A stretch of DNA of 64,000 bases from Candidatus Aegiribacteria sp. (GTDB lineage: Bacteria; Fermentibacterota; Fermentibacteria; Fermentibacterales; JCC-6): positions 241 through 64,240 of the forward strand of contig JAUVLV010000002.1 in NCBI GenBank assembly GCA_030600545.1, in the 5' to 3' direction. Below are positions 42,175 through 64,000 of the stretch, piece by piece. Within the stretch, counting starts at the first letter, position 1, and the number at the start of each line of letters is the position of its first letter. Below the pieces are notes generated by a model that saw only the letters and a list, made by a program, of their open reading frames with translations, ran no database searches and had not been told where the DNA came from. Both the position numbers and the translations under genes were made by a program.

Positions 42175-42915
42175 ATGGCAGAGGTACTTGAAAAGAAGAT
42201 TCTTGATCTGCTTGATCGCAGGGAAGAACTTGTAGGCAGGTTGAATAATCTGGAAACCATGAAACCAGATACTAACGCCAGGGTGTACAAGAAGATTCGT
42301 GGGGATTACAGTACCAAACTTCAGGATGTACTCGAGAAAATAAATGAGAAGAGAGGTTCTCTCGAGACGAAGGCAGAAGAGTTAACAAATCAGATCAGTG
42401 AGAAAGAAAAGATATTTACCGACCAGTCTGACCAGGTTGATGAGCTTCAGATAAGGGCAAAACTCGGTGAATTCAATCATGATAATGATGAATTCAAAAA
42501 TGAACTGAACCAGGCGGAATCCGATCGTGATAAAACCTCAGGAGCACTTGATAAGCTCAGGAAGGAACTAAGCGATCTCAATGGCGTACTTAGCGATGTA
42601 GATCACGCTACTTCCGCAGGTGTGCCCGGCATGGATAATACGATTCAGACAAAGGTGGAAACGAAGAGTGAAGAGGATGTCATCGATTTAGAAGATGATG
42701 ACCTCGTCGAAGAAGTCGAAGAGGCCAAAATCGATAATCTTGACATGGACGTTGATGACATCAAAGATGAGTCGGATGAAAACAAGTGTCCCAATTGCGG
42801 GCATGTAAACCCTCCTCATCTTGTTGTCTGCGAAGAGTGCAATGCTGAACTCGAAGACCTGAGCCAGGATCTGGATGACGAGTTCGACTTCGACGACATG
42901 GATGTTGATATCTAA
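42175..42915 (+). CDS. Coiled-coil protein with an acidic linker and a C-terminal zinc ribbon
   Basis: Heptad-like sequence fills the N-terminal 150 aa. D/E-rich tracts follow (EDVIDLEDDDLVEEVEEAKIDNLDMDVDDIKDESDE). The zinc ribbon is CPNCGHVNPPHLVVCEECNAEL. A strong SD (AGGAGG) precedes the start. Confidence 0.55.
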   Translation: MAEVLEKKILDLLDRREELVGRLNNLETMKPDTNARVYKKIRGDYSTKLQDVLEKINEKRGSLETKAEELTNQISEKEKIFTDQSDQVDELQIRAKLGEFNHDNDEFKNELNQAESDRDKTSGALDKLRKELSDLNGVLSDVDHATSAGVPGMDNTIQTKVETKSEEDVIDLEDDDLVEEVEEAKIDNLDMDVDDIKDESDENKCPNCGHVNPPHLVVCEECNAELEDLSQDLDDEFDFDDMDVDI

Positions 42916-45405: not shown

Positions 45406-45415
45406 GTGAGTGAAA

Positions 45416-50297: not shown

Positions 50298-52479
50298 GTT
50301 CTTTGGATTCATTCTTGTAGTCGCGTCCGTACTCCTTGCGTGCAGAGCGCTTCAACCGGATGAAAACCTGGACAACCTCTCATGCCAGCAGAGAAGCATG
50401 TTTGCTGAAGCCAGCGGAGATTCCCTGCAGCAGGCAGGGATGGTTGACCAGGCCAGGGAAGAGTATTTAAGGGCTGCCCTGCTCAGAACGCCTGAAGACA
50501 GTCTTAGAGCCTGTCTTGTCTGGAAAGCTGCCGGGTCCTCTGATTTGCCAAGTGTGCTTACTTCCCAGTTGCTGCTTGAGCTGACGGATTCACTGGCTCC
50601 ATACAGGGCACTTGAACTGGGAGGCGCCAGTATCGGCAGGGAACTCCTTTCCTGCATCTCCCGCAATAATCGCGTGATGCCTGAATATCTTCGCCTTGTT
50701 CTTGCCGATTCCCTTCTAAAGGTCGGTGAAGCAGAATTAGCGCTAACCGCTCTCAGTGGAGTTCCGGGAAACCTACCCGAAAGGGCTCTCAGAAGAAGGA
50801 CAATACTCTTCTACAGGGGTTTTCTTGAAACGCAGCGGCTATCGTTATCGGATTCTCTGTTCAACCGGGCTGAGAACTCAGGTGACGATGAACTTCTATC
50901 CCTTCTATGTCATTACAGGGGGATGTGGATGGCTGATGAAGGCATTTCCGGATACCGAAACGTTTTTCTGAAGTCCTTTGAACTCTGGCCAGCGGCTCCT
51001 GTCCATGCCAGTGCGTATGACGCATTAAGGCCGGAGATACTTGCGGACAGGAATTTTGCCGGTTCAGTTGCCGACCAATTTTATAGCGGAGGGCTCTGGA
51101 ACGAACTGTATGATATAGCTCAGAATTCTCTCGATCCCGACCCTCACCTCTGGTACCTTGCTGCACGTACAAGGGACAGGCTGGGGTTTTACGATGCCGC
51201 CATTGACATGCTTGAACAGTATCTTGACAGGTGGCCTGAAGGGGCGGATACACCCAACGCCATGATTTATCTGGGGCGTAATCTGGGACGTTCCGGTGAC
51301 TGGCAGAGCGGACTTGCGGTTTTAAAGCAGTACGGGGAGGATTTTTCAGACCATTACAGAATAGGAAACCTTCCCTGGTATATCGGTGACTTGCTGGTGG
51401 AAAACAGGCAATGGCAGCAGGCCATTCCCTGGTTTCAAATAACCCTTGAGCGTTACCCGTACAATGTTACAGCCGACGACGCGCATTTCTATCTCTGCTT
51501 TTCGCTCCTCAAGTCAGGCAGAATAGTTGACGCGATAGCCGAATTTGAGAGTTTCATTTCAAAATGGACTGGAAGCGTATACCTTTCATCCGCTAAATAC
51601 TGGCTCGGCAAACTTCTTTATACCGAAGGTAACCCTGAAGGTACAGTCATACTTGAGGCTCTCATTCAGGCAGCTCCAGCAAGTCTTCCCGCCTTTTTCG
51701 CAAGGGAATTGCTGGGATGGCCTGCCTGGGAACCTGAATTTACAGATGAGCCACTTGATCGATGGATGATAAGAAATGGAATTTCACCCGCATTGCCGCC
51801 TGAGGCTGCTCTCAGGGGATTGTTTCTTCAGGAAGCGGGACTGAGGCATTTCGCGGATGGTGAGTTCAGGAAGGCGGAAGAAATTGTAGGCGGACCGGAA
51901 TACCTTGCGCCTTTCTACCTTAATAACGAAGTCTGGGAAAGAAGACCCATTTCAGGATACAACATGTGGAATCTTGCTGATAACGACAGGCCCAGGGAGC
52001 TGTGGATGCTGCGCTACCAGATGGCATGGCCGGAGCTTGTGGTTCCGGCAGGTGTGAAATACGGATTGGATTCACTCCTGGCATGGGCTATCATCAGGAA
52101 TGAAAGCATGTTCCAGCCAACCTGCTATTCCGTAGCGGGGGCAAGGGGACTCATCCAGATGATCCCCAGCACTTCTGAGTACGTTGCAATCGAGCATGGG
52201 TGGGATGATTACTCACCTGACAGGCTTTACGATCCGGCGGTTTCCATCGAATACGGAATAAGCTACATATCCGATGTAAACCGGGATTTTGGTGGCAATC
52301 CTGTTATTACCGCGGCGGCTTACAACGGAGGTCCTCACAATGCTGTTCACTGGGGCGCTGTGGATATGAATACTGATGAGTTCTTTGCGCTTATAACCTA
52401 CAATGAGACGAAAAATTACGCCCAGAATGTTCATCATGCCTACATGATTTATAAGGCTTTATACAGAGGTCGGACTTAA
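50278..52479 (+). CDS. Soluble lytic transglycosylase, Slt70-like (superhelical N-domain plus SLT domain)
   Basis: The SLT catalytic region is AWAIIRNESMFQPTCYSVAGARGLIQMIPST ... AAYNGGPHNAV. A TTG at 50278 gives the lipoprotein-type signal (M)PSTGTKFFGFILVVASVLLAC. The ORF is open from 50188, so the start is uncertain. Confidence 0.7.
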   Translation: MPSTGTKFFGFILVVASVLLACRALQPDENLDNLSCQQRSMFAEASGDSLQQAGMVDQAREEYLRAALLRTPEDSLRACLVWKAAGSSDLPSVLTSQLLLELTDSLAPYRALELGGASIGRELLSCISRNNRVMPEYLRLVLADSLLKVGEAELALTALSGVPGNLPERALRRRTILFYRGFLETQRLSLSDSLFNRAENSGDDELLSLLCHYRGMWMADEGISGYRNVFLKSFELWPAAPVHASAYDALRPEILADRNFAGSVADQFYSGGLWNELYDIAQNSLDPDPHLWYLAARTRDRLGFYDAAIDMLEQYLDRWPEGADTPNAMIYLGRNLGRSGDWQSGLAVLKQYGEDFSDHYRIGNLPWYIGDLLVENRQWQQAIPWFQITLERYPYNVTADDAHFYLCFSLLKSGRIVDAIAEFESFISKWTGSVYLSSAKYWLGKLLYTEGNPEGTVILEALIQAAPASLPAFFARELLGWPAWEPEFTDEPLDRWMIRNGISPALPPEAALRGLFLQEAGLRHFADGEFRKAEEIVGGPEYLAPFYLNNEVWERRPISGYNMWNLADNDRPRELWMLRYQMAWPELVVPAGVKYGLDSLLAWAIIRNESMFQPTCYSVAGARGLIQMIPSTSEYVAIEHGWDDYSPDRLYDPAVSIEYGISYISDVNRDFGGNPVITAAAYNGGPHNAVHWGAVDMNTDEFFALITYNETKNYAQNVHHAYMIYKALYRGRT

Positions 52480-52681
52480 CTTTTACTCGGGCGGATTTGC
52501 ATGAATTCCAAACAGTGAAAAGCAGATGTATATAAAGATGGTAGATGCATGCATTGAATGCAACGATTGTTTAAATTGTAACTTCCTGTCCGATAGCATT
52601 ATAAAAAACTGTATCAAATTGAATGGATTCTAGTCTTTTAAACCCCTTGACAAACCTGTTTCCCGTATCTATTTCATTGCC

Positions 52682-53698
52682 ATGCTTTTCATAAAACGGG
52701 GCAATCTTGACCAGCTGCTTGAATCCCTGAGGGGGGGGTACAGGGTATATGTTCCTCGCAAAATGGGGGACAGTACAGGCTACTCCCTTTTGGGTGAATC
52801 CGATACGGATTATGTGATCGGAGAGATCAGATCATTTGAACCTTTAAAATCTTTCTTTTTCCTTGGTAGAGAAAAAGTTGCGGAAGATTTCAAGCCGGAT
52901 GTTCTCCGTGATGATAAACCACCCTGCATTGTTGGCGCAAAAGCATGCGATCTGAAAGGTTTCAGAATTCTTGATTTCGTATTCATTGACGATGAATACG
53001 GCGATCCCACCTACATGAAAGCAAGAAAAGATGGGTTGATAATATCGGCTGACTGCACAGGTGTTGGTGAAACATGCTTCTGTACGGCGGTAGATATCAA
53101 TCCCTGGCCCGATTCCGATTTTGATATAAACCTGTCTCCTGTAGATGACGGTTTCGTTGTAACTACCGGAAGCGAAAAAGGCCGCGATACCGTAGAAAAC
53201 AATAAGAGCCTGTTCCAGGAAGAAACTGAAGCTCAGGTTAGGGCCGTCAAGCAGAACAGAAATACTGTGAAATCCGATGTAATGAAGAAGGCACAGGAGA
53301 AGCGGATTCCTTCCGCCGATAGACTCCAGCGTATTGTTAATAAACAGTACGAATCAAATATCTGGGAAGAGGTTTCTGAAAACTGCGTGGAATGCGGAGC
53401 CTGCAATACGATATGTCCCACATGTCACTGTTTCCTTCTGTACGATCAGAAATCTGATGGCAAACTCGCCAGATTCAGAGTATGGGATTCATGCATGATC
53501 AACGACTTTGCTACGGTAGCAGGAGGAGAGAACCCTCGAGATAGATTATGGATGAGGCTTAGAAACAGATTCGATAAGAAATTCAACTATTTTCCCGAGG
53601 TGGCCGAAGAGATAGGCTGCACGGGATGCGGCAGATGCATAGCTGCCTGTCCCGGCAAGATCGACATAAGAGATGTCCTGGCAAGACTGGAAACATGA
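52682..53698 (+). CDS. 4Fe-4S cluster protein, sulfhydrogenase beta (HydB) / AsrA-like
   Basis: The Cys patterns are CTGVGETCFCTA, CVECGACNTICPTCHC and CTGCGRCIAACP. It sits next to an AsrB/HydG-like partner, with an ATGA overlap. Confidence 0.7.
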   Translation: MLFIKRGNLDQLLESLRGGYRVYVPRKMGDSTGYSLLGESDTDYVIGEIRSFEPLKSFFFLGREKVAEDFKPDVLRDDKPPCIVGAKACDLKGFRILDFVFIDDEYGDPTYMKARKDGLIISADCTGVGETCFCTAVDINPWPDSDFDINLSPVDDGFVVTTGSEKGRDTVENNKSLFQEETEAQVRAVKQNRNTVKSDVMKKAQEKRIPSADRLQRIVNKQYESNIWEEVSENCVECGACNTICPTCHCFLLYDQKSDGKLARFRVWDSCMINDFATVAGGENPRDRLWMRLRNRFDKKFNYFPEVAEEIGCTGCGRCIAACPGKIDIRDVLARLET

Positions 53699-54513
53699 TG
53701 AAGAATCCATACCGCTCCATTGAAGCTGAAGTACTGAAGGTTACCACGGAAACCGATACAATAAAAACCTTCCTTCTAAAGCCAAAAGAAGAACTCACTT
53801 TCAAACCCGGGCAATTTATGGAATTTTCCGTTCCCGGTGTGGGTGAAGCTCCGTTCACTCCATCATCGGATTCACAGATAACTGAAACGATGGAAATAAC
53901 CATTGTCAGGGTCGGCAAGGTTACCGATGCCATACACGAACTGAAACCCGGCGATACCATCGGTCTGAGAGGGCCACTGGGTAAAGGATATCCACTTACG
54001 AAATTCATAGGCCAGGATATATTGGTCATTGGCGGCGGTGTTGGACTCGCACCTATCCGGACTCTGATGTACGGTCTTTTTCACATGAGAGAGCAGTTGT
54101 CTGCAATTGTTTACAGAGGTGGATGCAGAAACCCCGAGGAATTCCTGTTCCGAGAGCAGCTTGAGGAATGGATTAAGCGGGATGACATTGATATAAGACT
54201 TACCGTTGATGCAGGTAACGATTCCTGGGATGGTTCAGTCGGAGTTGTTACAACAATAATGGATGATATTAACGTTAATTTTGCGAGGGCAAAAGCAATC
54301 GTATGCGGCCCTCCGATAATGATGAAATTCGCCACATTCAAATTGCAGGAACTGGGCGTAAGAGACAGGAATATCTACCTGTCCATGGAGAAAAACATGT
54401 CCTGTGGTTTCGGCAAATGTGGGCATTGCAGGATTGGACCTTATTACTGTTGCAAGGACGGCCCTGTATTTACTTACGATATGATCCGGGAATACCCGGG
54501 AATCTGGGAGTAG
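53695..54513 (+). CDS. FAD/NAD(P)-binding 2Fe-2S oxidoreductase, sulfhydrogenase gamma (HydG) / AsrB / PyrK-like
   Basis: The motifs are FKPGQFMEFSVPGVGEAPFTPSS (flavin site), ILVIGGGVGLAPI (NAD(P) site) and MSCGFGKCGHCRIG...CCKDGPVF (2Fe-2S). I take the ATG at 53695 as the start. Confidence 0.75.
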   Translation: MMKNPYRSIEAEVLKVTTETDTIKTFLLKPKEELTFKPGQFMEFSVPGVGEAPFTPSSDSQITETMEITIVRVGKVTDAIHELKPGDTIGLRGPLGKGYPLTKFIGQDILVIGGGVGLAPIRTLMYGLFHMREQLSAIVYRGGCRNPEEFLFREQLEEWIKRDDIDIRLTVDAGNDSWDGSVGVVTTIMDDINVNFARAKAIVCGPPIMMKFATFKLQELGVRDRNIYLSMEKNMSCGFGKCGHCRIGPYYCCKDGPVFTYDMIREYPGIWE

Positions 54514-54514
54514 G

Positions 54515-55066
54515 ATGGCTATGGAGATGAACAAAACAACGTTTGATCAGCTTCATGGTAACATCGATGCTATAGAGAAGAAGAAAAGTGACAAAAGGCT
54601 GTTCATTGATCTTGATATATGCAATTCTGATCAGTGCGATGAATGTGTTATTGAATGCAGCTATTTCTATCATCCTGTTAACAACGGAATGATTTCTCTC
54701 ATCGAGCTTGCAACCTACGCGCTTATCTGCAGGCAGTGTGAAGAACCTCACTGTGTTAATTCGTGCCCGAGGGATGCCCTCGAAAAACTTGATGACGGAA
54801 TGCTTGTAAGACATACTGCGCTGTGTGTAAGTTGCAGTACCTGTTCACATGCATGTCCTTACGGAACCATCTACCCGGAGATAGTGCCTCATCTGTCAAA
54901 TATCTGTGATTACTGCAAAGACAGAGGAAACTTCACCTGCATTCCCACATGTCCGTATGGAGCACTTGCGATTGCGGGTAAAAGAAATACCGGGGGAGAT
55001 AATATTTTCGAACTGGGAAATCGGCTTGTTGTGCATTCAACTCACTGGGACAGGGGCAAGACATGA
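54515..55066 (+). CDS. Multi-cluster 4Fe-4S ferredoxin-type subunit (HycB/DmsB-like)
   Basis: The Cys motifs are CRQCEEPHCVNSCP, CVSCSTCSHACP and CDYCKDRGNFTCIPTCP. Confidence 0.7.
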   Translation: MAMEMNKTTFDQLHGNIDAIEKKKSDKRLFIDLDICNSDQCDECVIECSYFYHPVNNGMISLIELATYALICRQCEEPHCVNSCPRDALEKLDDGMLVRHTALCVSCSTCSHACPYGTIYPEIVPHLSNICDYCKDRGNFTCIPTCPYGALAIAGKRNTGGDNIFELGNRLVVHSTHWDRGKT

Positions 55067-55974
55067 CGTTCGTCTACCTTGTTGTTTTCGGATTCGCAGC
55101 TACGGCTCTTCTCGGTCTGATAACCAGCTGGATTGACAGAAAAGTTACCGCAAGGGTTCAATACAGGGCAGGTCCCCCATTCCTTCAGCCTTTTTACGAT
55201 ATAGTAAAGCTTCTTGGAAAAGAAACCCTTATACCTGCGGGGGCTTCAAAGGGTGCGTTTCTCATTGCTCCGGTTATTGGAATTTCAGGTGTGATAGTGG
55301 TTTCTACGCTTTTCTGGGTTAATCAGTTCTTCTCCGAGGGTTTCATGGGAGACTGGATCGTGGCTATGTATCTTCTAACAGTTCCCTCACTCAGTTTAAT
55401 TCTAGGCGGATTCGCTTCAGGAAATCCTCTTGCAAGTCTGGGAGCTTCAAGGGAGATGAAGCTTGTTATCGCGTACGAACTCCCCTTCATACTTGTAGCT
55501 CTGGTTCCGGTAATCAGCGCACATTCCATTCGTCTTGGTGATATTATCAATGTTCAGGCAGGGGGAGTATTTGCCGGCAGCATATCCGGCATACTGGCTT
55601 TGATAGTTGCCATTCTATGTGTTCAGGCAAAGCTCGCACTGGTTCCCTTTGACATCCCAGAAGCCGAAACGGAAATTGTAGAGGGTCCGATTGTGGAATA
55701 CTCAGGCCCCGGGCTTGCCATGTTCAAATTGATGAAGAACATGCTTCTATTTGTTCTTCCGTTCTTCCTGATTATTCTCTTCTTCGGAGGGCTTCGATTC
55801 GACGGAATAAACATTCTCTGGACCGTTCTTGAATACTTGGGAATTGTAGCAATAATTACAGTTATCCGTAATACCAATCCCAGGGTTCGGATAGATCAGG
55901 CTGTTAGATTTTTCTGGGGACCTATGACATTGTTAGCTATTGTTGCCGTTATATTGGCACTTAAAGGTTTATAG
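55063..55974 (+). CDS. Membrane subunit, NuoH/HycD/MbhM family
   Basis: The motif is RKVTARVQYRAGPPFLQPFYDIVKLLGKE, and the protein is multi-pass hydrophobic. Confidence 0.8.
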   Translation: MTFVYLVVFGFAATALLGLITSWIDRKVTARVQYRAGPPFLQPFYDIVKLLGKETLIPAGASKGAFLIAPVIGISGVIVVSTLFWVNQFFSEGFMGDWIVAMYLLTVPSLSLILGGFASGNPLASLGASREMKLVIAYELPFILVALVPVISAHSIRLGDIINVQAGGVFAGSISGILALIVAILCVQAKLALVPFDIPEAETEIVEGPIVEYSGPGLAMFKLMKNMLLFVLPFFLIILFFGGLRFDGINILWTVLEYLGIVAIITVIRNTNPRVRIDQAVRFFWGPMTLLAIVAVILALKGL

Positions 55975-55995
55975 AAGGGTAAGGCTGCAACTGTA

Positions 55996-56421
55996 ATGAG
56001 CCTGAAGCTAAAAGCACTTCTGAAATCACCGTGGGTGTTTCATCTGTCTACCGGCAGCTGCAACAACTGTGATATTGAAATTCTGGACTGTCTTACCCCC
56101 AGGTTCGATCTTGAACGGTTCGGAATGCTATTGGTGGGAAGCATCAAACATGCTGATGTTCTTCTCGTTACCGGTTCGTGCAACAGGATGTCCGTTGAGC
56201 GGCTGAAAGAACTTTACAAACAGGTTCCGCAGCCATGCCTGGTGGTTGCCGTAGGAACGTGTGCGGCGTCCAGGGGGATATTCAAGGACAGTTATAACTG
56301 CCCCGTACCGCTTGATAAGATAATACCGGTCGATGTCTACATACCCGGCTGTCCACCTAAACCTGAAGCGATGATCGCAGGTGTAGTAAAATTGATTGAG
56401 AAAGTTGGCGGCGCCAAATGA
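55996..56421 (+). CDS. Group-4 hydrogenase small subunit, NuoB/MbhJ family
   Basis: The four proximal-cluster cysteines are at CNNCDIE, GTCAASRG and IPGCPPKPEA. Length is 141 aa. Confidence 0.85.
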   Translation: MSLKLKALLKSPWVFHLSTGSCNNCDIEILDCLTPRFDLERFGMLLVGSIKHADVLLVTGSCNRMSVERLKELYKQVPQPCLVVAVGTCAASRGIFKDSYNCPVPLDKIIPVDVYIPGCPPKPEAMIAGVVKLIEKVGGAK

Positions 56422-56891
56422 CAAGAGAAGAAGTACTTATGGATTTCACAAGCCGTTTTAACGAAGATATACTTGATTTTGAAGACAAATCTAACACTCG
56501 CGTATATGTTAATATCAAACCTGAGGCAATTGTCAGAATCGGAACCTATCTGTTCAGAAATGTTAATGCCAGGTTCAATATAGCCAGTGCTACTGACATG
56601 CCTCCCAACATTGAAATTCTATACCATTTCATCGTTGAGGATATCAATCTGGTTATTTCACTTCGAGTTTTTCTCAACAGGGAGAATCCTGAGATCGAGT
56701 CTCTTGGAAAAGAGATTGAAGCTTTCAACTGGATAGAGAGAGAAATGAGCGAGCTGCTGGGAATAACCTTCATCGGCCACCCTGACCCAAGGAGACTTTT
56801 ACTTGCCGACAACTGGCCGGAATGTGTATATCCCCTGAGACAGGATTATGAGGAGTGGGATGAGAAAGCCGACAGGACAAGGGGTGTGTAA
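56418..56891 (+). CDS. NuoC/MbhK-family subunit
   Basis: The motif is NWIEREMSELLGITFIGHPDPRRLLL. Length is 157 aa. Confidence 0.75.
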   Translation: MTREEVLMDFTSRFNEDILDFEDKSNTRVYVNIKPEAIVRIGTYLFRNVNARFNIASATDMPPNIEILYHFIVEDINLVISLRVFLNRENPEIESLGKEIEAFNWIEREMSELLGITFIGHPDPRRLLLADNWPECVYPLRQDYEEWDEKADRTRGV

Positions 56892-58075
56892 TGGGTAAAA
56901 CAATAATACCTATAGGCCCGTACCATCCTCTTCAGGAAGAACCGGAATTTTTCACCCTTACCGTTGAGGGCGAGACGGTTATTGATATCGATATGAGAAT
57001 GGGTTACAACCACAGAGGCATCGAGAAGCTGTCCGAAAGAAAAACATTCGAGAACAGCACTTTCGTAGTTGAGAGGATCTGCGGCATCTGTTCCACAAGC
57101 CATCCATACGCCTATACAAGGGCGGTTGAAGATATTTTTCCGATGGAAGTATCAATGAGGTCCAAGTACATAAGAACCATTATAGCTGAAGGCGAGAGGA
57201 TCCATTCACACCTTCTCTGGTTGGGTCTTGCAGGACATTTCCTGGGTTACAACACTGTTTACATGTGGGCCTGGAAACTACGCGAGGAAATCCTTGACGT
57301 CATGGAGATACTTTCAGGCAACAGGAATGCCTATGCCATGTTCAAACCCGGTGGCGTCCGCAGAGACATAAAGCCTGAGGATGTTCCATTATCTGTAAAG
57401 AAGATCGATTCCATACTCCCAACCCTTGATATGATTAAGAAAGCCGTTCTTGACGATCCAGTTCTCCACGCCAGACTCAAGGGTGTCGGCGTTCTGAGTT
57501 ACCAGGAAGCCATTGACTTCAGTGCGCTGGGTCCTACATCCAGGGCATCTGGTGTTGCCCGTGATGTGAGAAAGGATTCCCCCTACGGCGCATACCAGGA
57601 GATGGAATGGGACATGATAGTTACCGAGAACGGTGATGTTTTCGATAAGGCTGTTGTTCGAATTCTCGAGATGTTCGAAGCTGCGAAGATAATGAAATAC
57701 TGTCTTAACAATCTCCCGGATGGCGAGATAGACGCGAAGATAAAAGATGTTCCTCCCGGCGAGGGAATAGGTCATGTAGAAGCTCCAAGGGGTGAGACTT
57801 TCCATTATGTGAAAAGCGATGGAACTAACAGACCCATTCGGCACAAAGTACGTGCTCCGACATTCATGAACCTTCCTACTTACAAGGCGACCGTGAAGGG
57901 TCAGACGATTTCAGACGCAACTATAATCCTTGCCGCAATTGATCCGTGCTACTGCTGTACCGAAAGAATAGCTGTAAAGGATGCTAAAGGCAGGATGCTT
58001 TACGACGGGAAGGATCTTGTACAGCTCAGCCGTGAGAAAACCGCGAAGATGAAACGGAGGATGGGTGTCAGATGA
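56891..58075 (+). CDS. [NiFe]-hydrogenase large subunit, group 4 (NuoD/MbhL/EchE family)
   Basis: The N-terminal ligand motif is RICGICSTSH (Cys codons at 57080 and 57089). The C-terminal motif is DPCYCCTER (Cys codons at 57947 and 57956). A 35-aa tail follows. Confidence 0.85.
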   Translation: MGKTIIPIGPYHPLQEEPEFFTLTVEGETVIDIDMRMGYNHRGIEKLSERKTFENSTFVVERICGICSTSHPYAYTRAVEDIFPMEVSMRSKYIRTIIAEGERIHSHLLWLGLAGHFLGYNTVYMWAWKLREEILDVMEILSGNRNAYAMFKPGGVRRDIKPEDVPLSVKKIDSILPTLDMIKKAVLDDPVLHARLKGVGVLSYQEAIDFSALGPTSRASGVARDVRKDSPYGAYQEMEWDMIVTENGDVFDKAVVRILEMFEAAKIMKYCLNNLPDGEIDAKIKDVPPGEGIGHVEAPRGETFHYVKSDGTNRPIRHKVRAPTFMNLPTYKATVKGQTISDATIILAAIDPCYCCTERIAVKDAKGRMLYDGKDLVQLSREKTAKMKRRMGVR

Positions 58076-59775
58076 GTTTTAATCTGATAATAGATGCCCT
58101 TAAAAACCCGAACGGCTATTTCGCCAGCACTCCTCTATCACTCCTTTGTGCGCTGTTTGCCGCCATGTTCTTCATATTCACGGTTATTTACTCCATGAAG
58201 CACATGAAAGGCCGTAGCGGCCTATGGCGCTATTATTTCTATCTATTGGCCACTTTTATTTCTACGCTTGGTGTACTGCTTACCAACAATTTCATCGTTC
58301 TTCTGGTTTTCTGGGGTTTCCTTGGACTGCTCCTTTACCTTCTAATTGGTTTTGGCAGACGGGAAGGAACGCCTGAAACTGCACGAAAGACACTGGTAAT
58401 AGTTGGAGGAACCGATGTCCTGATGCTTTTAGGGATAGTTTTAATCTGGAAGCTTACTGCCGGCTCCTCCGGGCTACCAGGACTGTTTTCAATGCCTATC
58501 ATCAGCGGTATGAAAATACAGCTTGATGGAACGGTTTCAATTGTTGCGTATATCTGCCTTGCATCTGCAGCGTTTGCCAAAGCAGGAGCGATGCCCTTTC
58601 ATACCTGGGTTCCGGATGCAGCGGAAAATGCTCCAACACCTGTTGCTGCGTATCTTCCAGCCTCACTCGACAAACTACTCGGAATTTATTTCCTGACCCG
58701 GATAACTCTTGATGTATTTGTGATGACACCGACCATGAATACAATCCTTATGGCTCTGGGAAGTATTACTATCATTGCAGCTGTAATGATGGCACTTATT
58801 CAGCACGATCTGAAACGTCTGTTAGGGTATCATGCAGTCAGCCAGGTGGGATATATGGTTCTTGGAATAGGTACAGGTAATCCGATAGGGATTGCAGGTG
58901 CGCTTTTTCACATGTTCAACCATGCTATCTACAAGTCCTGTCTGTTTCTGGCAGGTGGTGCAGCTGAAAGAAAGGCAGGCACGAGTAATCTCGCGAAGAT
59001 GGGGGGGCTGGTAAAGTCAATACCTCTTGTATTTGTTACATTCCTTATAGCTTCTCTGGCAATCTCAGGAGTGCCTCCTATGAATGGGTTTGCATCGAAA
59101 TGGCTTGTATACCAGGGAGTTATTGAATCAGGCGGCTCATTATGGGTTCTCTGGCTTATCGTAGCAATGTTTGGAAGTGCTCTTACTCTTGCGAGTTTCA
59201 TGAAATTGATACATGCCGTTTTCCTTGGTCAGCCTTCAGAGGGAGTGAAAAAGATTCTTTCCAAAGAGAAGAAGGGAACGGGACTCTTAATGGGAATACC
59301 TCTTGTGGTACTTTCCATGCTCTGTATCGTTCTTGGGGTATTTGCCTGGAAGATACCGTTCGGAGAGTACTTCAGCCCTGAAATAAGTGGACAGGTGAAT
59401 TATCTTGGCATATGGCAGTCCGGGCTTGCCACACTGATGATAATAGCCGGGATGGTGATTGGATCCCTGATATACCTTGCAGGCACGATGAAGAAGGCAA
59501 GAATTGTGGCTCCTTTCATAGGTGGCGAAAAATTTGAGAAAAATCCTGATATGCGAGTATCCGGTGTTGATTTCTACAAGACCGTTAAGGACATCGGTAT
59601 TCTTAAGTTTATATACAGACTTGCCGAGAAGAAGCTGTTCGACCTGTACGAAGTGTCAATGAAAATTGTTGCCGGATTTGGCATAGTTTTATCTTTCATG
59701 CATAATGGCATACTTTCCAGATATTTTCTCTGGTTTGTCGTTGGGCTTGTGGTATTGTGCATAATGCTGATCTGA
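58072..59775 (+). CDS. Antiporter-like membrane subunit (NuoL/MrpA/MbhH family), 567 aa
   Basis: The proton-conducting transporter motifs are GAMPFHTWVPDAAENAPTPVAAYL and HMFNHAIYKSCLFLAGG. A C-terminal amphipathic extension is present. Confidence 0.8.
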   Translation: MSFNLIIDALKNPNGYFASTPLSLLCALFAAMFFIFTVIYSMKHMKGRSGLWRYYFYLLATFISTLGVLLTNNFIVLLVFWGFLGLLLYLLIGFGRREGTPETARKTLVIVGGTDVLMLLGIVLIWKLTAGSSGLPGLFSMPIISGMKIQLDGTVSIVAYICLASAAFAKAGAMPFHTWVPDAAENAPTPVAAYLPASLDKLLGIYFLTRITLDVFVMTPTMNTILMALGSITIIAAVMMALIQHDLKRLLGYHAVSQVGYMVLGIGTGNPIGIAGALFHMFNHAIYKSCLFLAGGAAERKAGTSNLAKMGGLVKSIPLVFVTFLIASLAISGVPPMNGFASKWLVYQGVIESGGSLWVLWLIVAMFGSALTLASFMKLIHAVFLGQPSEGVKKILSKEKKGTGLLMGIPLVVLSMLCIVLGVFAWKIPFGEYFSPEISGQVNYLGIWQSGLATLMIIAGMVIGSLIYLAGTMKKARIVAPFIGGEKFEKNPDMRVSGVDFYKTVKDIGILKFIYRLAEKKLFDLYEVSMKIVAGFGIVLSFMHNGILSRYFLWFVVGLVVLCIMLI

Positions 59776-59788
59776 TTGGGTTTGGAAT

Positions 59789-60337
59789 ATGATTGAATTA
59801 TACGTACTTCTGGGTTTGATGATCGCTGGAGCGATAATAGCGATAGAGGTGAAGAACCTTCTGTCAGCTGTTGTGGCTGTAGGTATCGTGGGGCTTGGAC
59901 TATCTGTCATTTTCCTTTTACTGAAGGCACCGGATGTGGCAATTACACAGATTGTGGTTGAAATTGCAGCTGTAATACTTCTCATAAGGGCAACGCTTCA
60001 TAGAGAAATTGCCTTGAAATCATGTGGAAGCAGGCCCTTCGGAGCTCTTATGGGGATTATATTCCTCGGCCTTGCTGTTATCGCAGCATTTGCAACGTTC
60101 AGCAGCGGCCTTTCTCCATTTGGAGAACCTTTGATGACTGTCTCGAGTTTCTATCCCATGAATGCCATCTCCGGAACAGGGGCTACTAATGTTGTAACCT
60201 CTGTAATTCTTGACTATCGAGCCTACGATACTCTTGGAGAGGCTACAGTGCTTTTTACCGCCGTAATTGGTGTACTGACCGTTATGCGAAGCGTTGGTAA
60301 GAAAAAAGAGGAAGATTTGCAGGAGAACAATGAGTAA
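59789..60337 (+). CDS. MbhD (DUF4040)-like fused to the N-terminal part of MnhB/MbhE
   Basis: The motifs are APDVAITQIVVEIAAVILLI and NVVTSVILDYRAYDTLGEATVLFTAV. Confidence 0.65.
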   Translation: MIELYVLLGLMIAGAIIAIEVKNLLSAVVAVGIVGLGLSVIFLLLKAPDVAITQIVVEIAAVILLIRATLHREIALKSCGSRPFGALMGIIFLGLAVIAAFATFSSGLSPFGEPLMTVSSFYPMNAISGTGATNVVTSVILDYRAYDTLGEATVLFTAVIGVLTVMRSVGKKKEEDLQENNE

Positions 60338-60785
60338 AGAACATGAACATGGAATGACTGTCATTGTAAAAACGGTAACAAGGCTTACCGTTGGTCTGAT
60401 ATTCCTATACGGGATTTACATCATTCTGCACGGGCATCTTACGCCCGGTGGAGGATTCGCCGGCGGGGTTATCATAGCACTCTCTTTCATGAACCTTGAC
60501 CTGGCCTTCGGCGGCAGCGTTTCCGCGAAGGTATTCTCGAAGGGAAGCACCGGTGTTGTCGAGGCGCTGGGGGCTGTCATGTTCCTTGCTCTGGCTCTCA
60601 TTGGACTGAGATATGGAGGGTTTTTTGATAACTTCCTCCATCCGGATGGAGACCCTGGACAGCTTGTAAGTGCCGGTATAATACCCCTTGAGAACATTGC
60701 CATCAGCCTGAAGGTTGGTGCCGGTCTGTTCGGTATTTTCCTTACTTTGATAGTACTGCAGAAATTTGAATCGGAGAAGAAGTAA
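60330..60785 (+). CDS. MrpB/MnhB-domain subunit (MbhF-like)
   Basis: The motif is HGHLTPGGGFAGGVIIAL. The ATG at 60330 is preceded by AGGAGA and overlaps the upstream gene by 8 nt. Confidence 0.7.
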   Translation: MSKEHEHGMTVIVKTVTRLTVGLIFLYGIYIILHGHLTPGGGFAGGVIIALSFMNLDLAFGGSVSAKVFSKGSTGVVEALGAVMFLALALIGLRYGGFFDNFLHPDGDPGQLVSAGIIPLENIAISLKVGAGLFGIFLTLIVLQKFESEKK

Positions 60786-61138
60786 TGAACGCGTATATGC
60801 CCTATGTCCTCTGCACTGTACTCTTCTGTATCGGTATCTACGCAATACTCTCGAAAAAGAATATCATCAAGATCATACTGGGAGTCGTGATAGCGGAGTA
60901 CGCTGTAAACCTTTTTCTTGTTCTTGTGGCCTACAAGGCAGGAGGAAGAGCAGCGATATTCTCAGAGACAGAGGTTATTTATCCCGAATCAATGGTCGAT
61001 CCGCTTCCACATGCTCTTGTTCTTACATCCATAGTGATTGGGCTCGCGACAACAGCTTTTCTTATTGCTTTGGCCATACGACTGTACGGTAAATACGGAA
61101 CCTTTGATGTAACCAGAATGCGGGAGCTAAGAGGATGA
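60785..61138 (+). CDS. MrpC/MnhC (NuoK-like) subunit
   Basis: It is 117 aa with three TM segments. The motif is FCIGIYAILSKKNIIKIILGVVIAEYAVNLF. Confidence 0.75.
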   Translation: MNAYMPYVLCTVLFCIGIYAILSKKNIIKIILGVVIAEYAVNLFLVLVAYKAGGRAAIFSETEVIYPESMVDPLPHALVLTSIVIGLATTAFLIALAIRLYGKYGTFDVTRMRELRG

Positions 61139-62628
61139 TAAGTGAAAATATAATACCTCTTTTTGTAGCGATCCCGCTTGCAGGGGCTTTCCTGACTGTT
61201 CTTTTTAAGAGAATAAAGGGAATTCCCGATACTCTTGGCGTTATGGCTTCTGCAGGAGCATTCGCTCTTTCCATCCTGTTTGTTCTGAAGATGGAAATTG
61301 GTCAGAGGATAATCTACAACGTTGGTAACTGGGGCGGATTCCAGGAGGTACTGGGAAAAATAGTTGGCATTCAGCTGGTTGTTGATGGATTAACAACTTT
61401 TATGCTGGTAACGGTCAACCTGATAGCGTTTCTTGTGGCTGTATACTCTATCAGTTACATGACCAGATATACCGAGAAATGGCAGTTCTATTCTCTATTC
61501 CTTCTTATGCTTGCTGGAATGAATGGCGTCCTGATTACAGGTGATATGTTCAATCTCTTTGTTTTCGTTGAGATAGCTTCCCTGGCAAGTTATGCACTGG
61601 TAGCGTTCGGCACCGAAAAACGGGAACTTGAAGCCTCATTCAAATACGCTGTTATGGGTGGTATAGCTTCGCTTCTGATACTGTTGGGAGTGATCTTCCT
61701 CTACAGCAATACAGGCACGCTTAACATGGGAAACATGGCAAAGATCCTGGACAGTTCTGAGGAGCCCGTTCTGATATATCTGGTATTCGGTCTTTTCCTT
61801 GCGGGATTTGGTCTCAAGGCAGCGATAATTCCATTTCATGCGTGGCTTCCCGATGCTCATCCATCTGCTCCCGCTCCTATTTCCGCAATGCTTTCCGGAG
61901 TTCTCATCAAAGCGCTGGGAGTCTATACACTCGTACGAGTATTCTACTGTGTATTCGGTTTCCCTGAGCAGGTATCCTCCATTTTTATGACTCTGGGAGC
62001 ACTCTCAATGATCATTGCTGTACTTCTCGCTCTCAAGCAGTGGGACATGAAACGTCTGCTCGCGTATCATTCGATCAGTCAGATTGGTTATATCATACTC
62101 GGGTTTGGTATTGGATCGCATCTGGGCATAATGGGTGGCCTTCTGCATTTATTCAACCACTCGGTATTCAAATCTCTTCTTTTCCTCAATGCCGGATCAC
62201 TGGAGTATGCTACCGGAACCAGGAATCTCAAGGAAATGGGTGGTTTGACCAAACAAATGCCTGTTACCAGTTGGACAACACTGTCAGCCTCTATGTCGAT
62301 TTCGGGTGTACCACCTTTTGCAGGATTCTGGAGCAAACTTATCATTATTCTGGCATGCATTGAGAGAGGATTATGGTTCTATGCGATAATTGCTGTACTC
62401 GCAAGTATTCTTACTCTTGCATCCTTCATGAAAGTAACAAGGTATGCTTTCCTGGGAGATATTCGGAAAAAGCTCAGAAATGTTGTCGAAGTTCCCGTTC
62501 CTATGCGGATTGTGATGATCATTCTTGCGATTATGTGCATATTTGGTGGGGTTCTTTTACTACCCGGAGTTCGGCAGGGGTTCCTGGACCAGGCTGTTGA
62601 AGTTCTTTCCGGTGTGAGAGGGGTGTAG
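61135..62628 (+). CDS. MrpD/NuoN-like antiporter subunit, 497 aa
   Basis: The motifs are AAIIPFHAWLPDAHPSAPAPISAMLSG and HLFNHSVFKSLLFLNAG. Confidence 0.85.
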   Translation: MISENIIPLFVAIPLAGAFLTVLFKRIKGIPDTLGVMASAGAFALSILFVLKMEIGQRIIYNVGNWGGFQEVLGKIVGIQLVVDGLTTFMLVTVNLIAFLVAVYSISYMTRYTEKWQFYSLFLLMLAGMNGVLITGDMFNLFVFVEIASLASYALVAFGTEKRELEASFKYAVMGGIASLLILLGVIFLYSNTGTLNMGNMAKILDSSEEPVLIYLVFGLFLAGFGLKAAIIPFHAWLPDAHPSAPAPISAMLSGVLIKALGVYTLVRVFYCVFGFPEQVSSIFMTLGALSMIIAVLLALKQWDMKRLLAYHSISQIGYIILGFGIGSHLGIMGGLLHLFNHSVFKSLLFLNAGSLEYATGTRNLKEMGGLTKQMPVTSWTTLSASMSISGVPPFAGFWSKLIIILACIERGLWFYAIIAVLASILTLASFMKVTRYAFLGDIRKKLRNVVEVPVPMRIVMIILAIMCIFGGVLLLPGVRQGFLDQAVEVLSGVRGV

Positions 62629-62636
62629 TAGGAATT

Positions 62637-63149
62637 ATGAAGAGCCGAATTATCATGTTCGTAGTAGCCTTCGTAGTATGGTGCATCCTTTGCTGGATAC
62701 CGGATATACAACAACTGATTGCAGGGGCGGTTGTATCTCTGATCGTTGCCGCCGTTATGGGCTCGATGTTCGTCACAAGGCCGCATATGTTCTTCAATCC
62801 GATTCGGATATTCTATTTCCTGTTCTGGTACATTCCCGTATTCATCTGGGAGCTTATAAAGGCCAATTTCGATGTCGCGTATCGTGTCATTCATCCCTCA
62901 ATGCCGATAAAGCCAGGTATAGTAAGGCTCAAAACAGAGCTGAAATCTGACACAGGACTGACTTTCCTGGCAAATTCAATAACACTGACCCCAGGCACGC
63001 TTACAGTCGACATAGATCAGGATAACGGTATTCTATACATTCACTGGATTAACGTTGTGGGCTCCGATCCGGAAACAACGTTCCGGGAGATAGGAAGCCG
63101 ATTTGAACCGATGCTTAAGAAGATTTTCGAAGAAGATGTGGTAAAATAA
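62637..63149 (+). CDS. MrpE/MnhE subunit
   Basis: The motif is ELIKANFDVAYRVIHPSMPIKPGIV ... LANSITLTPGTLTVDID. Confidence 0.7.
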   Translation: MKSRIIMFVVAFVVWCILCWIPDIQQLIAGAVVSLIVAAVMGSMFVTRPHMFFNPIRIFYFLFWYIPVFIWELIKANFDVAYRVIHPSMPIKPGIVRLKTELKSDTGLTFLANSITLTPGTLTVDIDQDNGILYIHWINVVGSDPETTFREIGSRFEPMLKKIFEEDVVK

Positions 63150-63520
63150 TGAAGTTAGCGAGATGGATTGCAGGCACAGTAGTACTGCTGGCGGTTTTTG
63201 TCCTTATTATTGTGCTTCCATTCAAGAGTATCTTTTTTGAGCAGGATACAGGACATATCGGCTTTGCAGGCAGAATGATCTACATACTGATACTCTCCTC
63301 GATCATGGTTCTGTTCAGGATTCTCAGAGGGCCGTCGGCCGCTGACAGGATCGTTGCCATTGATATTTTCGGTATACTGATCGTCGGCCTCTGCGCAGTA
63401 CTCAGTATAGCTACGGGCCGTTCATGGTACATTGACATCGGTATCGCCTGGGGGCTTCAGAGCTTCATCGGCACACTGGCTCTTGCCAAGTATCTGGAGG
63501 GAAGAAGCTTCGATGATTGA
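63149..63520 (+). CDS. MrpF/MnhF subunit
   Basis: The motif is RILRGPSAADRIVAIDIFGILIV. Confidence 0.7.
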   Translation: MKLARWIAGTVVLLAVFVLIIVLPFKSIFFEQDTGHIGFAGRMIYILILSSIMVLFRILRGPSAADRIVAIDIFGILIVGLCAVLSIATGRSWYIDIGIAWGLQSFIGTLALAKYLEGRSFDD

Positions 63521-63851
63521 TATAATAGGAATGATATTTGTTGGAGTAGGAGTAGCTTTTGATGTCCTTGGCTGCCTTGGCCTTGTAAGACTTCCGGATG
63601 TTTACAACAGGCTTCAGGCCGCCACCAAGTGCGTAACACTGGGAACATGCAGCATTTTGTTCGGAACGTTCCTTATATCGGGCGGATTTACATCAACAGG
63701 TTTCAAGGCTCTTTTAGCAATTGTTTTCATTGTTCTAACATCACCAGTGTCGGCACACGCGGTTTCGCGCGGTGCGCACAGGGCCGGGCTCAAACTCTGG
63801 GATAAGAGCGTGATAGACAGTTATGCGGAAGACAAAGAAGGAGAAAAATAG
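63513..63851 (+). CDS. MrpG/MnhG subunit
   Basis: The motif is GCLGLVRLPDVYNRLQAATKCVTLG. I take the ATG at 63513 as the start; the ORF-track extension upstream lies inside mrpF. Confidence 0.75.
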   Translation: MIDIIGMIFVGVGVAFDVLGCLGLVRLPDVYNRLQAATKCVTLGTCSILFGTFLISGGFTSTGFKALLAIVFIVLTSPVSAHAVSRGAHRAGLKLWDKSVIDSYAEDKEGEK

Positions 63852-63890
63852 AATAGCGGATTGCGGAAGCGATTCGTTACGGATGGAAAT

Positions 63891-64000
63891 ATGAAATACC
63901 CTAAGCTCAGAGAACTCGCAGAAGCGATTAAAGCGGTTATCAAGGGGCCTTACACAACGAAGTTTCCGGCGGAACCCTTTACACCCCACCCCAATTTCAG
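63891..64000 (+). CDS. Start of a further subunit, possibly NuoI/MbhN-like ferredoxin (3' end beyond the window)
   Basis: My own translation gives MKYPKLRELAEAIKAVIKGPYTTKFPAEPFTPHPNF. This N-terminal pattern resembles MbhN/NuoI-type subunits, but the Cys motifs would lie beyond the window. Confidence 0.4.
   Translation, partial: MKYPKLRELAEAIKAVIKGPYTTKFPAEPFTPHPNF

Follow-up and report, generated by a model that had tools for sequence, protein, structure and literature searches.

The DNA considered here, 64,000 nucleotides (nt) of a contig of Candidatus Aegiribacteria sp. (the window), carries at 52682-64000 on its forward strand a hun operon of a Candidatus Fermentibacteria/Aegiribacteria host, in which hunA to hunO are complete and hunP is cut by the window edge. 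Hun was described by Glass et al. (bioRxiv 10.1101/536078) as a 16-gene Ni-Fe hydrogenase-Na+/H+ antiporter supercomplex, hunA-P, and the published guesses as to its electron donor conflict, ferredoxin having been proposed by some and NADPH by others. Glass et al. proposed ferredoxin, whereas the evidence of the present analysis favours NAD(P)H. The preferred reading, to which a probability of about 0.6 is assigned, is that the operon encodes a 16-subunit membrane complex composed of an NAD(P)H-type input module, a group-4 [NiFe]-hydrogenase and an Mrp arm. The association with the regulator Rex as a line of evidence, and the Fermentibacteria/Aegiribacteria member of the published Hun, are new here.

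Gene content and the electron-input module

Fifteen complete genes and the first 36 codons of a sixteenth lie on one strand, as established from the open reading frame (ORF) list, the translations and a junction check, and the tightly joined 16-gene unit noticed in the first-pass annotation was thereby reproduced. Consecutive genes share 4-nt ATGA-type overlaps at 53695, 55063, 56418, 58072 and 61135, 1-nt TAATG overlaps at 56891, 60785 and 63149, and 8-nt overlaps at 60330 and 63513; the remaining junctions are gaps of 1, 21, 13, 8 and 39 nt, the last being the longest. For three genes a start giving less than the longest ORF was chosen (53695, not 53626; 60330, not 60294; 63513, not 63432) because it agrees with the gene calls in the comparison contig L001, whose large subunit is 93% identical to that of the window. 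The Hun letters were given to the window genes by gene order. Scans of 52000-64000 for generic sigma-70 promoters and intrinsic terminators returned counts equal to the shuffled expectation and were uninformative on transcript structure.

The putative input module is encoded by the first three genes. HunA (52682-53698) is a SHI-beta/AsrA-like iron-sulfur protein of 338 amino acids (aa; Pfam Fer4_22, E 1.3e-30), HunB (53695-54513) a SHI-gamma/AsrB-like FAD/NAD(P)/[2Fe-2S] flavoprotein of 272 aa (Pfam FAD_binding_6, NAD_binding_1 and DHODB_Fe-S_bind) and HunC (54515-55066) a CooF/HycB-type polyferredoxin of 183 aa, with 16 Cys in four cluster motifs (Pfam Fer4_11). Over their full lengths, HunA and HunB match the beta and gamma subunits of the Pyrococcus furiosus hydrogenase SHI (9nez_B, E 2e-45, and 9nez_C, E 1.2e-54, respectively). 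When the conservation of metal ligands was computed over 64-82 orthologues, the predicted ligands were 97-100% conserved overall: 15 Cys of HunA are 100% conserved (68 sequences), the four Cys of the predicted HunB [2Fe-2S] site 96-100%, the 16 Cys of the four HunC clusters 97-100%, and Cys 22, 25, 89 and 119 of the small subunit HunE 100%.

The HunB motifs PFTPSS (FAD), GGGxGxAPxR (nucleotide loop) and CGPP are conserved at 96-100%. Ninety per cent of the sequences have Arg at position 141, and position 145, which aligns with an Arg of the NADPH-dependent SHI gamma subunit, is Lys or Arg in all 72 ungapped sequences; at neither does an acidic residue stand in place of the basic ones. Within the FNR family, such a basic pattern fits 2'-phosphate binding, and the basic residues at 141 and 145 of HunB, to judge from the alignment, would fit it too, i.e. 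the site may be NADPH-like.

The PDB relatives of HunC are MvhB, an AOR iron-sulfur subunit, HDCR HycB4 and HycB of formate hydrogenlyase (FHL), within the HycB/CooF/DmsB family. A full-length HunP orthologue has its best match in HycF of Escherichia coli FHL (7z0s_F, E 1.1e-13) and also matches P. furiosus MbsN, with MbhN weaker. Since HunC is of HycB/CooF type and HunP is HycF-like, the soluble arm is built like that of FHL, with the flavoprotein pair replacing FdhF. The eight Cys of the two HunP [4Fe-4S] clusters are conserved, together with a further set of four Cys; in the HunP orthologue of L001 (17005-17619) these are C131, C134, C193 and C196, in a C-terminal extension, and their conservation across 64 orthologues is 97-100%. 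They suggest a further metal site, perhaps a zinc ribbon or an extra iron-sulfur cluster, which MbhN does not have.

The hydrogenase genes proper comprise hunD (55063-55974), for a NuoH/MbhM-like membrane anchor of 303 aa (Pfam NADHdh, E 1.2e-67), hunE (55996-56421), for the NuoB-like small subunit of 141 aa (Pfam Oxidored_q6), hunF (56418-56891), for a NuoC-like subunit of 157 aa (Pfam Complex1_30kDa), and hunG (56891-58075), for the [NiFe]-hydrogenase large subunit of 394 aa (Pfam Complex1_49kDa and NiFeSe_Hases). The membrane arm that follows is a complete Mrp set with two antiporter-like subunits, in which MrpA is split into HunH and HunI and is succeeded by MrpB-G. HunH (58072-59775; 567 aa) is an antiporter-like protein resembling the MrpA N-terminal part and MbhH (Pfam Proton_antipo_M), and matched the NCBIfam MrpA, MrpD and NuoL/M models below their cut-offs; HunI (59789-60337; 182 aa) is an MbhD and MbhE fusion corresponding to the C-terminal part of MrpA (Pfam MbhD and MbhE; NCBIfam MrpA C-terminal region). 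HunJ (60330-60785; 151 aa; Pfam MnhB) is MrpB/MnhB-like, HunK (60785-61138; 117 aa; Pfam Oxidored_q2) MrpC/NuoK-like, HunL (61135-62628; 497 aa; Pfam Proton_antipo_M and Proton_antipo_N) an MrpD-like antiporter subunit, HunM (62637-63149; 170 aa; Pfam MNHE, E 1.4e-47) MrpE-like, HunN (63149-63520; 123 aa; Pfam MrpF_PhaF) MrpF-like and HunO (63513-63851; 112 aa; Pfam PhaG_MnhG_YufB) MrpG-like. The 5' end of hunP (63891-64000), cut by the window edge, encodes a NuoI/HycF-like subunit with two [4Fe-4S] clusters and was recognised by the match of its N-terminus to a 204-aa protein of L001; the 36 codons within the window (63891-63998) had no Pfam match by themselves. Pfam agrees gene for gene with the order and the family assignments of the first-pass annotation.

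HunG contains the motifs RICGICSTSH and DPCYCC, with a 35-aa C-terminal extension after DPCYCCTER. The marks of a group-4 enzyme are thus present, namely both CxxC pairs in the large subunit, a NuoB-like small subunit with one four-Cys cluster and NuoC-, NuoH- and NuoI-like partners, and so are those of its maturation, in the form of the C-terminal extension and, in relatives, of HycI and hyp genes (the window ends before that region). HunG is 42.7% identical to P. furiosus MbhL and 37.8% to E. coli HycE, and its best PDB match is the P. furiosus membrane-bound hydrogenase (MBH; 6CFW, E 4.9e-88). A library of 1.84 billion representatives held two close large subunits, a NuoC-NuoD fusion (59%) and one from Kosmotoga (55%), other full-length matches being at most 45% identical. 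In a neighbour-joining (NJ) tree, which had no support values and only MbhL and HycE as anchored references and serves for coarse grouping only, Hun stood on its own branch and MbhL on a separate one; with a midpoint root, the large subunits accompanied by an identified AsrA/B-like pair fell on one side and MbhL and HycE on the other. HydDB-type labels for these relatives differ in print, HunG being assigned to group 4g (bioRxiv 10.1101/536078) and the Fdh-like variant discussed below to 4b (PMC13582414).

Distribution of the cassette and its association with Rex

One genome per GTDB species was scanned with the large-subunit peptide motifs V[YF]MWAWK and IGPYHPLQ, both of which are confined to the Hun clade among 86 group-4 large subunits compared, and at least 581 species were found to have a confirmed relative of the large subunit. 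Loci from the best 80 of these at least 581 species, with large subunits 63-94% identical to HunG, were inspected in tblastn searches with the proteins of the window. The large subunits closest to HunG (91-94% identity) come from metagenome-assembled genomes (MAGs) of Candidatus Aegiribacteria/Fermentibacteria, and Omnitrophota proteins are still about 80% identical. Hosts of the best 80 are Omnitrophota (26), Planctomycetia (11), Fermentibacteria (9), Spirochaetes (5), Hydrogenedentota (4), Elusimicrobiota (4), Desulfobacterota (3), Clostridia (3) and Nitrospinaceae (2), with one each from Atribacterota, Nitrospirota, Acidobacteriota and Binatia and nine unclassified. Cultured carriers of Hun are Desulfosarcina variabilis str. 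Montpellier, one of the three Desulfobacterota, and Kosmotoga olearia TBF 19.5.1.

The hunABC trio lies directly 5' of the hydrogenase genes in 62 of the 63 loci with at least 4.6 kb of upstream DNA, spanning about 13 phylum-level groups, which is the synteny of beta/gamma genes with NuoH/B/C/D-like genes that the first-pass annotation had recommended searching for. The lone exception, in a Nitrospinaceae MAG (CP070799; L062, 5400-13500), has a fragmentary hunA and lacks most Mrp genes after hunH; the copy may be decaying, or the assembly may be at fault. Of the 50 loci with DNA to either side of the cassette, 46 have the full set of 16 genes, 42 of them colinear with the window. Chance falls far short of explaining such an arrangement. 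The trio also remains attached where the rest of the cassette is disturbed. Three Spirochaete loci (L041, L056 and L061) are rearranged so that the trio is followed by NuoB, NuoC, NuoD and NuoI, with NuoH and Mrp after these; the Mrp genes of L059 and L067 stand apart on the opposite strand, with the trio still beside the hydrogenase genes; and in the distant relative L085 trio-like genes are still found with hydrogenase genes though no Mrp genes are adjacent. Moreover, pairwise identities of HunA, HunB and HunC follow large-subunit identities (Spearman 0.84, 0.78 and 0.81, respectively) much as those of the core subunits NuoB and NuoI do (0.84). The trio, the hydrogenase and the Mrp genes are inherited as one unit.

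The cassette is commonly followed by maturation genes. A HycI protease gene lies 3' of hunP in 54 of 58 loci, and hypA, C, D and F are found downstream of hun in many loci and in K. olearia. Both L001 and K. olearia have all 16 genes followed by hycI; in the latter the cassette (L083; CP001634, 608398-629606) has an identical layout, and hypF/C/D come after hycI. Pollo et al. (PMC5674127) entered Kole_0560-0574 as one 'Hydrogenase', including the FAD/NAD(P) protein Kole_0573 and the iron-sulfur protein Kole_0574. In their RNA-seq operon table, Kole_0568-0575 (the trio with NuoH/B/C/D) is one unit and Kole_0555-0566 a second, the two being parted only by a gene annotated as a pseudogene, and reads per kilobase per million (RPKM) are uniform across Kole_0560-0574, if weak on pyruvate (30-200).

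Several other neighbours were met in these loci. At L036 (16790-18097) and six other loci, a 435-aa protein encoded downstream of hycI joins a HypC/HupF domain to a radical-SAM domain, which is unusual in a [NiFe] maturation factor. In L001 (18212-21185), 3' of hycI, a 531-aa protein without a Pfam domain, 81-90% conserved in L004 and L055, precedes a radical-SAM activase and a glycyl-radical enzyme; a link of these genes to hun may or may not exist. Just 5' of hunA and on the same strand, L071 (4895-5302) and three other Omnitrophota loci encode a 135-aa ferredoxin with a NIL domain and two [4Fe-4S] clusters. In addition, two Omnitrophota loci (L044, 19445-21182; L048, 18895-21182) have a second, divergent group-4 hydrogenase just downstream of hun on the opposite strand, with a NuoD-like subunit of 41-42% and a NuoB-like subunit of 52-53% identity.

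Clustering of flanking ORFs revealed a 211-aa Rex protein (Pfam Put_DNA-bind_N and CoA_binding) whose gene, in 15 loci, lies directly 5' of hunA in the same orientation; four more loci have a rex gene just after hunP, giving 19 loci with rex in total. Rex boxes were sought as TTGTGAAn4TTCACAA with at most two mismatches, the consensus of PMC2883068. Twelve loci have such a box within 400 nt 5' of hunA and nine have one 5' of rex-hunA (21 loci), and at least 26 of the 80 loci have a rex gene, a Rex operator-like box or both. Box density was 12 per 42.6 kb upstream of hunA and 9 per 862 kb elsewhere in the loci, about 27-fold lower. In K. olearia, a one-mismatch box, TTGTGAATTTTATCACAA, lies 15 nt 5' of hunA and is the only match in that 21-kb locus. 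Rex represses its targets until NADH/NAD+ rises, and the Caldicellulosiruptor Rex regulon is reported to include hydrogenase-related genes. The Rex association argues for hun expression being tied to the pyridine-nucleotide redox state and, since derepression would come at high NADH, hun fits a consumer of reducing equivalents, i.e. H2 evolution.

In the window itself, an intergenic region of about 200 nt (52480-52681, forward strand) separates the hun unit from an unrelated TPR/SLT lytic-transglycosylase gene, and was studied in an alignment of seven upstream regions from Fermentibacteria/Aegiribacteria relatives. A candidate promoter, ATTGTTnAAATTGTAAC...TATAAA, near 52566-52610, is mostly conserved among these relatives, and CCCCTTGACAAA, near 52644-52655, is invariant among them, its end lying about 26 nt 5' of the hunA ATG. 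A three-mismatch Rex-box match in the window overlaps the invariant CCCCTTGACAAA and is not regarded as a Rex site. A perfect inverted repeat, TGCATT-G-AATGCA, near 52549-52561, is not common to the relatives.

Relation to published and characterised systems

Glass et al. (bioRxiv 10.1101/536078) reported Hun in Atribacteria (JS-1), Firmicutes, Omnitrophica, Elusimicrobia, Bacteroidetes and Kosmotoga, gave CGIC...CYCC as the hallmark of HunG, and found that HydDB places HunG in group 4g although it is 'evolutionarily distant' from other members. They also noted a molybdopterin protein between HunB and HunC in some MAGs, and cited a report that a membrane hydrogenase of Baltic Sea Atribacteria is co-transcribed with an oxidoreductase. 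The HunG of the window bears the CGIC...CYCC signature, with Cys 64, 67, 353, 355 and 356 100% conserved (82 sequences). The window agrees with the published Hun in the 16-gene order, in AsrAB-like HunAB without AsrC, in the polyferredoxin HunC, in the NuoH/B/C/D/I-like hydrogenase module and in the full Mrp module; the sole difference is the host lineage, Candidatus Fermentibacteria/Aegiribacteria. The study that named Hun is said to have appeared in journal form in Environ Microbiol in 2021. The first-pass annotation, which could not match the unit to a characterised complex, was right in so far as no characterised enzyme was found in the literature searched, but overstated its novelty. It had also looked to whether these beta/gamma genes are routine in the operons of the large subunit's subgroup and have a known role there: they are routine, but no experimental account of their role was found in the literature searched.

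A molybdopterin-bearing variant of the cassette was described by Matheus Carnevali et al. (2019; PMC6349859), who called it 'enigmatic', in Saganbacteria RX5A. In a 2026 paper (PMC13582414), which speaks of 'group 4b' clades, the extra genes were identified as homologues of SHI gamma and beta 'involved in NADPH oxidation', bifurcation or confurcation was proposed, and the molybdopterin/Fdh-like variant was suggested to couple H2 and NADPH through these homologues. Such clusters share with the window AsrA/B-like and CooF-like genes beside an Mrp-linked group-4 hydrogenase, but they have a 535-aa insert and a NuoC-NuoD fusion, neither of which is found in the window or the best 80 loci. The example at hand, L086, encodes a 535-aa molybdopterin-domain protein between its AsrB-like and CooF-like genes and has NuoC fused to NuoD; its large subunit is 58-59% identical to HunG and falls in with the Hun clade in the NJ tree. 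Coupling to NAD(P)H is therefore not a new idea for the cassette; it is a reasonable one, strengthened here though not proven. In genome papers, Mrp-linked hydrogenases from Omnitrophota, Cloacimonadota and Auribacterota, which may or may not be Hun, are labelled 'group 4g', with ferredoxin as the assumed donor. A Methylocystis group-4f preprint, a Staphylothermus genome paper, a Moorella paper and the eco-thermodynamics paper of Nobu proved to deal with matters other than this cassette.

More distant relatives differ in their input genes. L085 (5808-12011; large subunit 40-42% identical) has AsrA/B-like genes, CooF, NuoH/B/C/D and NuoI, is preceded by rnf genes and has no adjacent Mrp genes, and L091 (5377-11098; about 40%) has rex, AsrA/B-like genes, a small ferredoxin and NuoH/B/C/D, then the contig ends. 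In both, the HunB-like protein has a degenerate NAD(P) loop and CGPP motif, so that the module can exist as a pure electron relay; given that the motifs are decayed in these two but strict in Hun, their retention in Hun looks selected for nucleotide binding. Four relatives that are 40-45% identical (L084, L087, L088 and L089) are without AsrA/B-like genes, and the NuoI-type subunits of L084, L087 and L089 are short (119-127 aa), as expected for direct ferredoxin docking.

Among characterised enzymes, P. furiosus MBH (group 4d) shares with Hun the Mrp link and the NuoB/C/D/H/I-like, MrpB/C/E/F/G-like and MbhD/E-like subunits. Its electrons come straight from ferredoxin, and it lacks HunABC, the three extra soluble subunits of Hun; moreover, MBH has one antiporter-like subunit and Hun two. 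Membership of group 4d is not indicated for Hun, as the identity to MbhL is low, the branch is separate and HunP is closer to HycF/MbsN than to MbhN. FHL-1 (7Z0S) and the Thermococcus onnurineus Fdh-Mrp-Mbh and CODH-Mrp-Mbh enzymes, built on formate dehydrogenase (Fdh) and carbon monoxide dehydrogenase (CODH), show the same modular chain, from a donor enzyme to HycB/CooF, to a HycF-like subunit, to the small subunit and to [NiFe], and the Thermococcus enzymes also share the Mrp module. Their donor enzyme is FdhF or CooS, that of Hun the FAD/NAD(P)/[2Fe-2S] flavoprotein pair, and no Fdh, molybdopterin or CODH gene, as would mark a formate/CO enzyme of group 4b, was found in the window cassette or the 80 loci.

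HunA and HunB are full-length homologues of the beta/gamma subunits of SHI (group 3b, 9NEZ) and of AsrA/B of Salmonella AsrABC. The partners in those enzymes are group-3 alpha/delta subunits or AsrC, whereas the partner in Hun is a membrane-bound group-4 hydrogenase with a NuoD/NuoB-type catalytic pair. The cassette and the other window ORFs scanned yielded neither AsrC, nor a siroheme/sulfite-reductase domain, nor a group-3 alpha/delta gene, and an AsrABC-type sulfite reductase or a soluble sulfhydrogenase was rejected, the catalytic partners being absent and the family cut-offs not reached. Complex I, like Hun as proposed here, has a pyridine-nucleotide-oxidising peripheral arm on an Mrp-derived membrane arm, with NuoB/C/D/H/I/K and antiporter-like homologues, but its NuoEFG input is unrelated to the Hun input module. 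Complex I was likewise rejected, as the [NiFe] cysteines are intact and NuoEFG genes are absent; because HunG keeps these cysteines, its acceptor is taken to be H+, not quinone.

Proposed mechanism, alternatives and neighbouring genes

An ion-translocating hydrogenase wired to NAD(P)(H), alone or together with ferredoxin, had been predicted in the first-pass annotation. The wiring to NAD(P)H gains support from the homology to the SHI NADPH module, the conserved motifs and Rex; for coupling, direction and ion translocation the case is one of inference, as it is for NAD(P)H specificity and for the assembly of the 16 proteins into a single complex, to which co-inheritance and co-expression lend indirect support. 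Such a complex would have three parts: a group-4 peripheral arm of HunE/F/G/P (NuoB/C/D/I-like), anchored by the NuoH-like HunD; an Mrp-type ion-translocating membrane arm, HunH-O; and an FHL-style input branch in which formate dehydrogenase has been swapped for an SHI-beta/gamma-type NAD(P)H:iron-sulfur flavoprotein. Electrons would pass from NAD(P)H to the FAD and [2Fe-2S] cluster of HunB, to the [4Fe-4S] clusters of HunA, the four clusters of HunC and the two of HunP, and thence through the HunE cluster to the [NiFe] site in HunG. The reaction would be NAD(P)H + H+ <-> NAD(P)+ + H2, close to equilibrium at in-situ H2, and the Mrp arm would therefore either conserve little energy at low H2 or spend the Na+/H+ gradient at higher H2. 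Under Rex control in many lineages, the enzyme would act as a redox valve through which excess reduced pyridine nucleotide leaves as H2.

By calculation, the free energy change of H2 formation from NAD(P)H is +18 kJ/mol at 1 bar H2, near zero at 100 Pa and, at 10 Pa, -5 to -16 kJ/mol as the reduced/oxidised ratio goes from 1 to 100; to move one monovalent ion against 120-180 mV, 12-17 kJ/mol is needed. The stronger claim, that Hun is a chemiosmotically coupled NAD(P)H:H+ oxidoreductase and so the ion-coupled third side of the ferredoxin/NAD(P)H/H2 triangle, is put forward tentatively, at somewhat less than even odds. Rnf is the ferredoxin-NAD side of this triangle and Ech or Mbh the ferredoxin-H2 side; we know of no enzyme for which chemiosmotic coupling between NAD(P)H and H2 has been demonstrated biochemically.

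Several points weigh against a complex driven by NAD(P)H. H2 formation from NAD(P)H is uphill at standard conditions, and outward pumping is possible only at low H2 and excluded at high H2. HunA and HunB scored below the NCBIfam cut-offs for ShyB (173/690), HydB (161/750), HydG (188/650), AsrA (137/323) and AsrB (219/289), and are therefore relatives, not equivalogs, of those proteins. The region 52480-52681 has no Rex box at up to two mismatches and no adjacent rex gene, and neither feature was met in most Fermentibacteria relatives, among which a single two-mismatch box occurs, in L005. Rex senses NADH and the HunB motif is more NADPH-like, so that the cofactors are not exactly the same. In K. 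olearia grown on pyruvate, the hun RPKM values of 30-200 compare with about 2000 for the [FeFe] hydrogenase (PMC5674127). No assay, purification or structure of any Hun complex was found in the literature searched, and the describers of Hun favoured another donor.

Their proposal, made by analogy with AsrAB (bioRxiv 10.1101/536078), is that HunABC relays electrons from reduced ferredoxin to [NiFe], the complex producing H2 and exporting Na+ in the manner of MBH. Ferredoxin is the donor of MBH, the characterised Mrp-linked relative, and is assumed in the HydDB-based 'group 4g' papers; the thermodynamics would be comfortable, and the degenerate L085 and L091 proteins indicate that a relay is feasible. 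Nevertheless, a ferredoxin-driven Hun is considered unlikely. Within Hun proper the FAD and NAD(P) motifs of HunB are kept almost without exception (96-100%) and the pair matches the SHI NADPH module over its full length, whereas a relay from one iron-sulfur protein to another would not need a flavoprotein with a nucleotide site. Rex control suits a pyridine-nucleotide-linked enzyme, and the short NuoI-type subunits belong to the nearest HunAB-less relatives by large subunit (L084, L087 and L089), while HunP is HycF-like with a C-terminal extension.

Distinctly less probable than this is confurcation or bifurcation, in which protons would be reduced jointly by NAD(P)H and another low-potential donor, be it ferredoxin or some unknown substrate, or the reaction would run backwards, whether coupled to ions or not. 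It would remove the thermodynamic difficulty of making H2 from NAD(P)H, and the variant L086, which groups with the Hun clade, is of the kind for which PMC13582414 proposed it, with SHI-beta/gamma homologues and a catalytically dead Fdh-like protein. That third, molybdopterin/Fdh-like branch is, however, absent from the window cassette and the best 80 loci, and the full Mrp arm offers an alternative means of balancing the energetics. A single flavin site is predicted, in HunB; in NfnAB, the subunit homologous to HunB, NfnA, is the non-bifurcating site.

With wiring identical to that of the NAD(P)H-driven complex, the enzyme could instead run in the direction of H2 uptake, oxidising H2, reducing NAD(P)+ and exporting ions, as SHI is thought to recycle H2 into NADPH. 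This direction is exergonic by 18 kJ/mol at standard conditions, about one ion per two electrons, and the cassette occurs in sulfate reducers (Desulfosarcina variabilis and a Desulfococcus MAG) and in Nitrospinaceae/Nitrospirota MAGs. It is nonetheless judged very improbable as the main role, as derepression of Rex targets at high NADH suits a consumer of NADH and not a producer, most hosts are fermenters, and group-4 enzymes are classed as H2-evolving. Finally, two independent enzymes on one transcript, a soluble HunABC oxidoreductase (sulfite-/sulfur-related or NAD(P)H:ferredoxin) and a ferredoxin-dependent Mrp-Mbh, HunD-P, are hardly credible: AsrAB and SHI beta are linked to sulfite/sulfur reduction and the Hyd24-12 genome paper enters a 'sulfhydrogenase' and a membrane hydrogenase separately, but AsrC, siroheme and group-3 alpha/delta genes are missing from the cassette and the window ORFs scanned, the trio is kept beside the hydrogenase genes in 62 of 63 loci and through rearrangements, it co-diverges with the large subunit as tightly as core subunits do, and CooF/HycB-type proteins are known adaptors that join donor modules to group-4 hydrogenases.

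The choice of donor matters, as the energetics of anoxic sediments, of digesters and of the subsurface are governed by H2 turnover, and metabolic models routinely score the cassette as a ferredoxin-dependent Mbh. The phyla affected are Omnitrophota, Planctomycetota, Fermentibacteria, Hydrogenedentota, Elusimicrobiota, Atribacterota and Spirochaetes, and also some sulfate reducers. If H2 and NAD(P)H are linked through an ion gradient as proposed, redox balancing, H2 thresholds, the need for syntrophic partners and ATP yields would have to be re-predicted for hundreds of uncultured species. Fermenters among the at least 581 species would vent excess NAD(P)H as H2 under Rex control, gaining a fraction of an ATP at low H2 and spending the Na+/H+ gradient at higher H2. 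The cultured hosts K. olearia TBF 19.5.1 (Kole_0560-0575) and Desulfosarcina variabilis make the question of the donor directly testable.

The rest of the window has housekeeping content, and no Fdh, CODH, rex or hyp genes were found among its ORFs scanned. Two ORFs, at 18965-19969 (reverse strand; 334 aa) and 42175-42915 (forward strand; 246 aa), are without a Pfam match at E 1e-6. Immediately 5' of the operon, 45410-52479 is occupied by three large TPR-repeat genes encoding 1225, 405 and 763 aa, with the same synteny in L001. The 763-aa TPR protein has a C-terminal SLT lytic-transglycosylase domain, and its ORF overlaps the previous one by 110 nt, so that the real start is probably further downstream.

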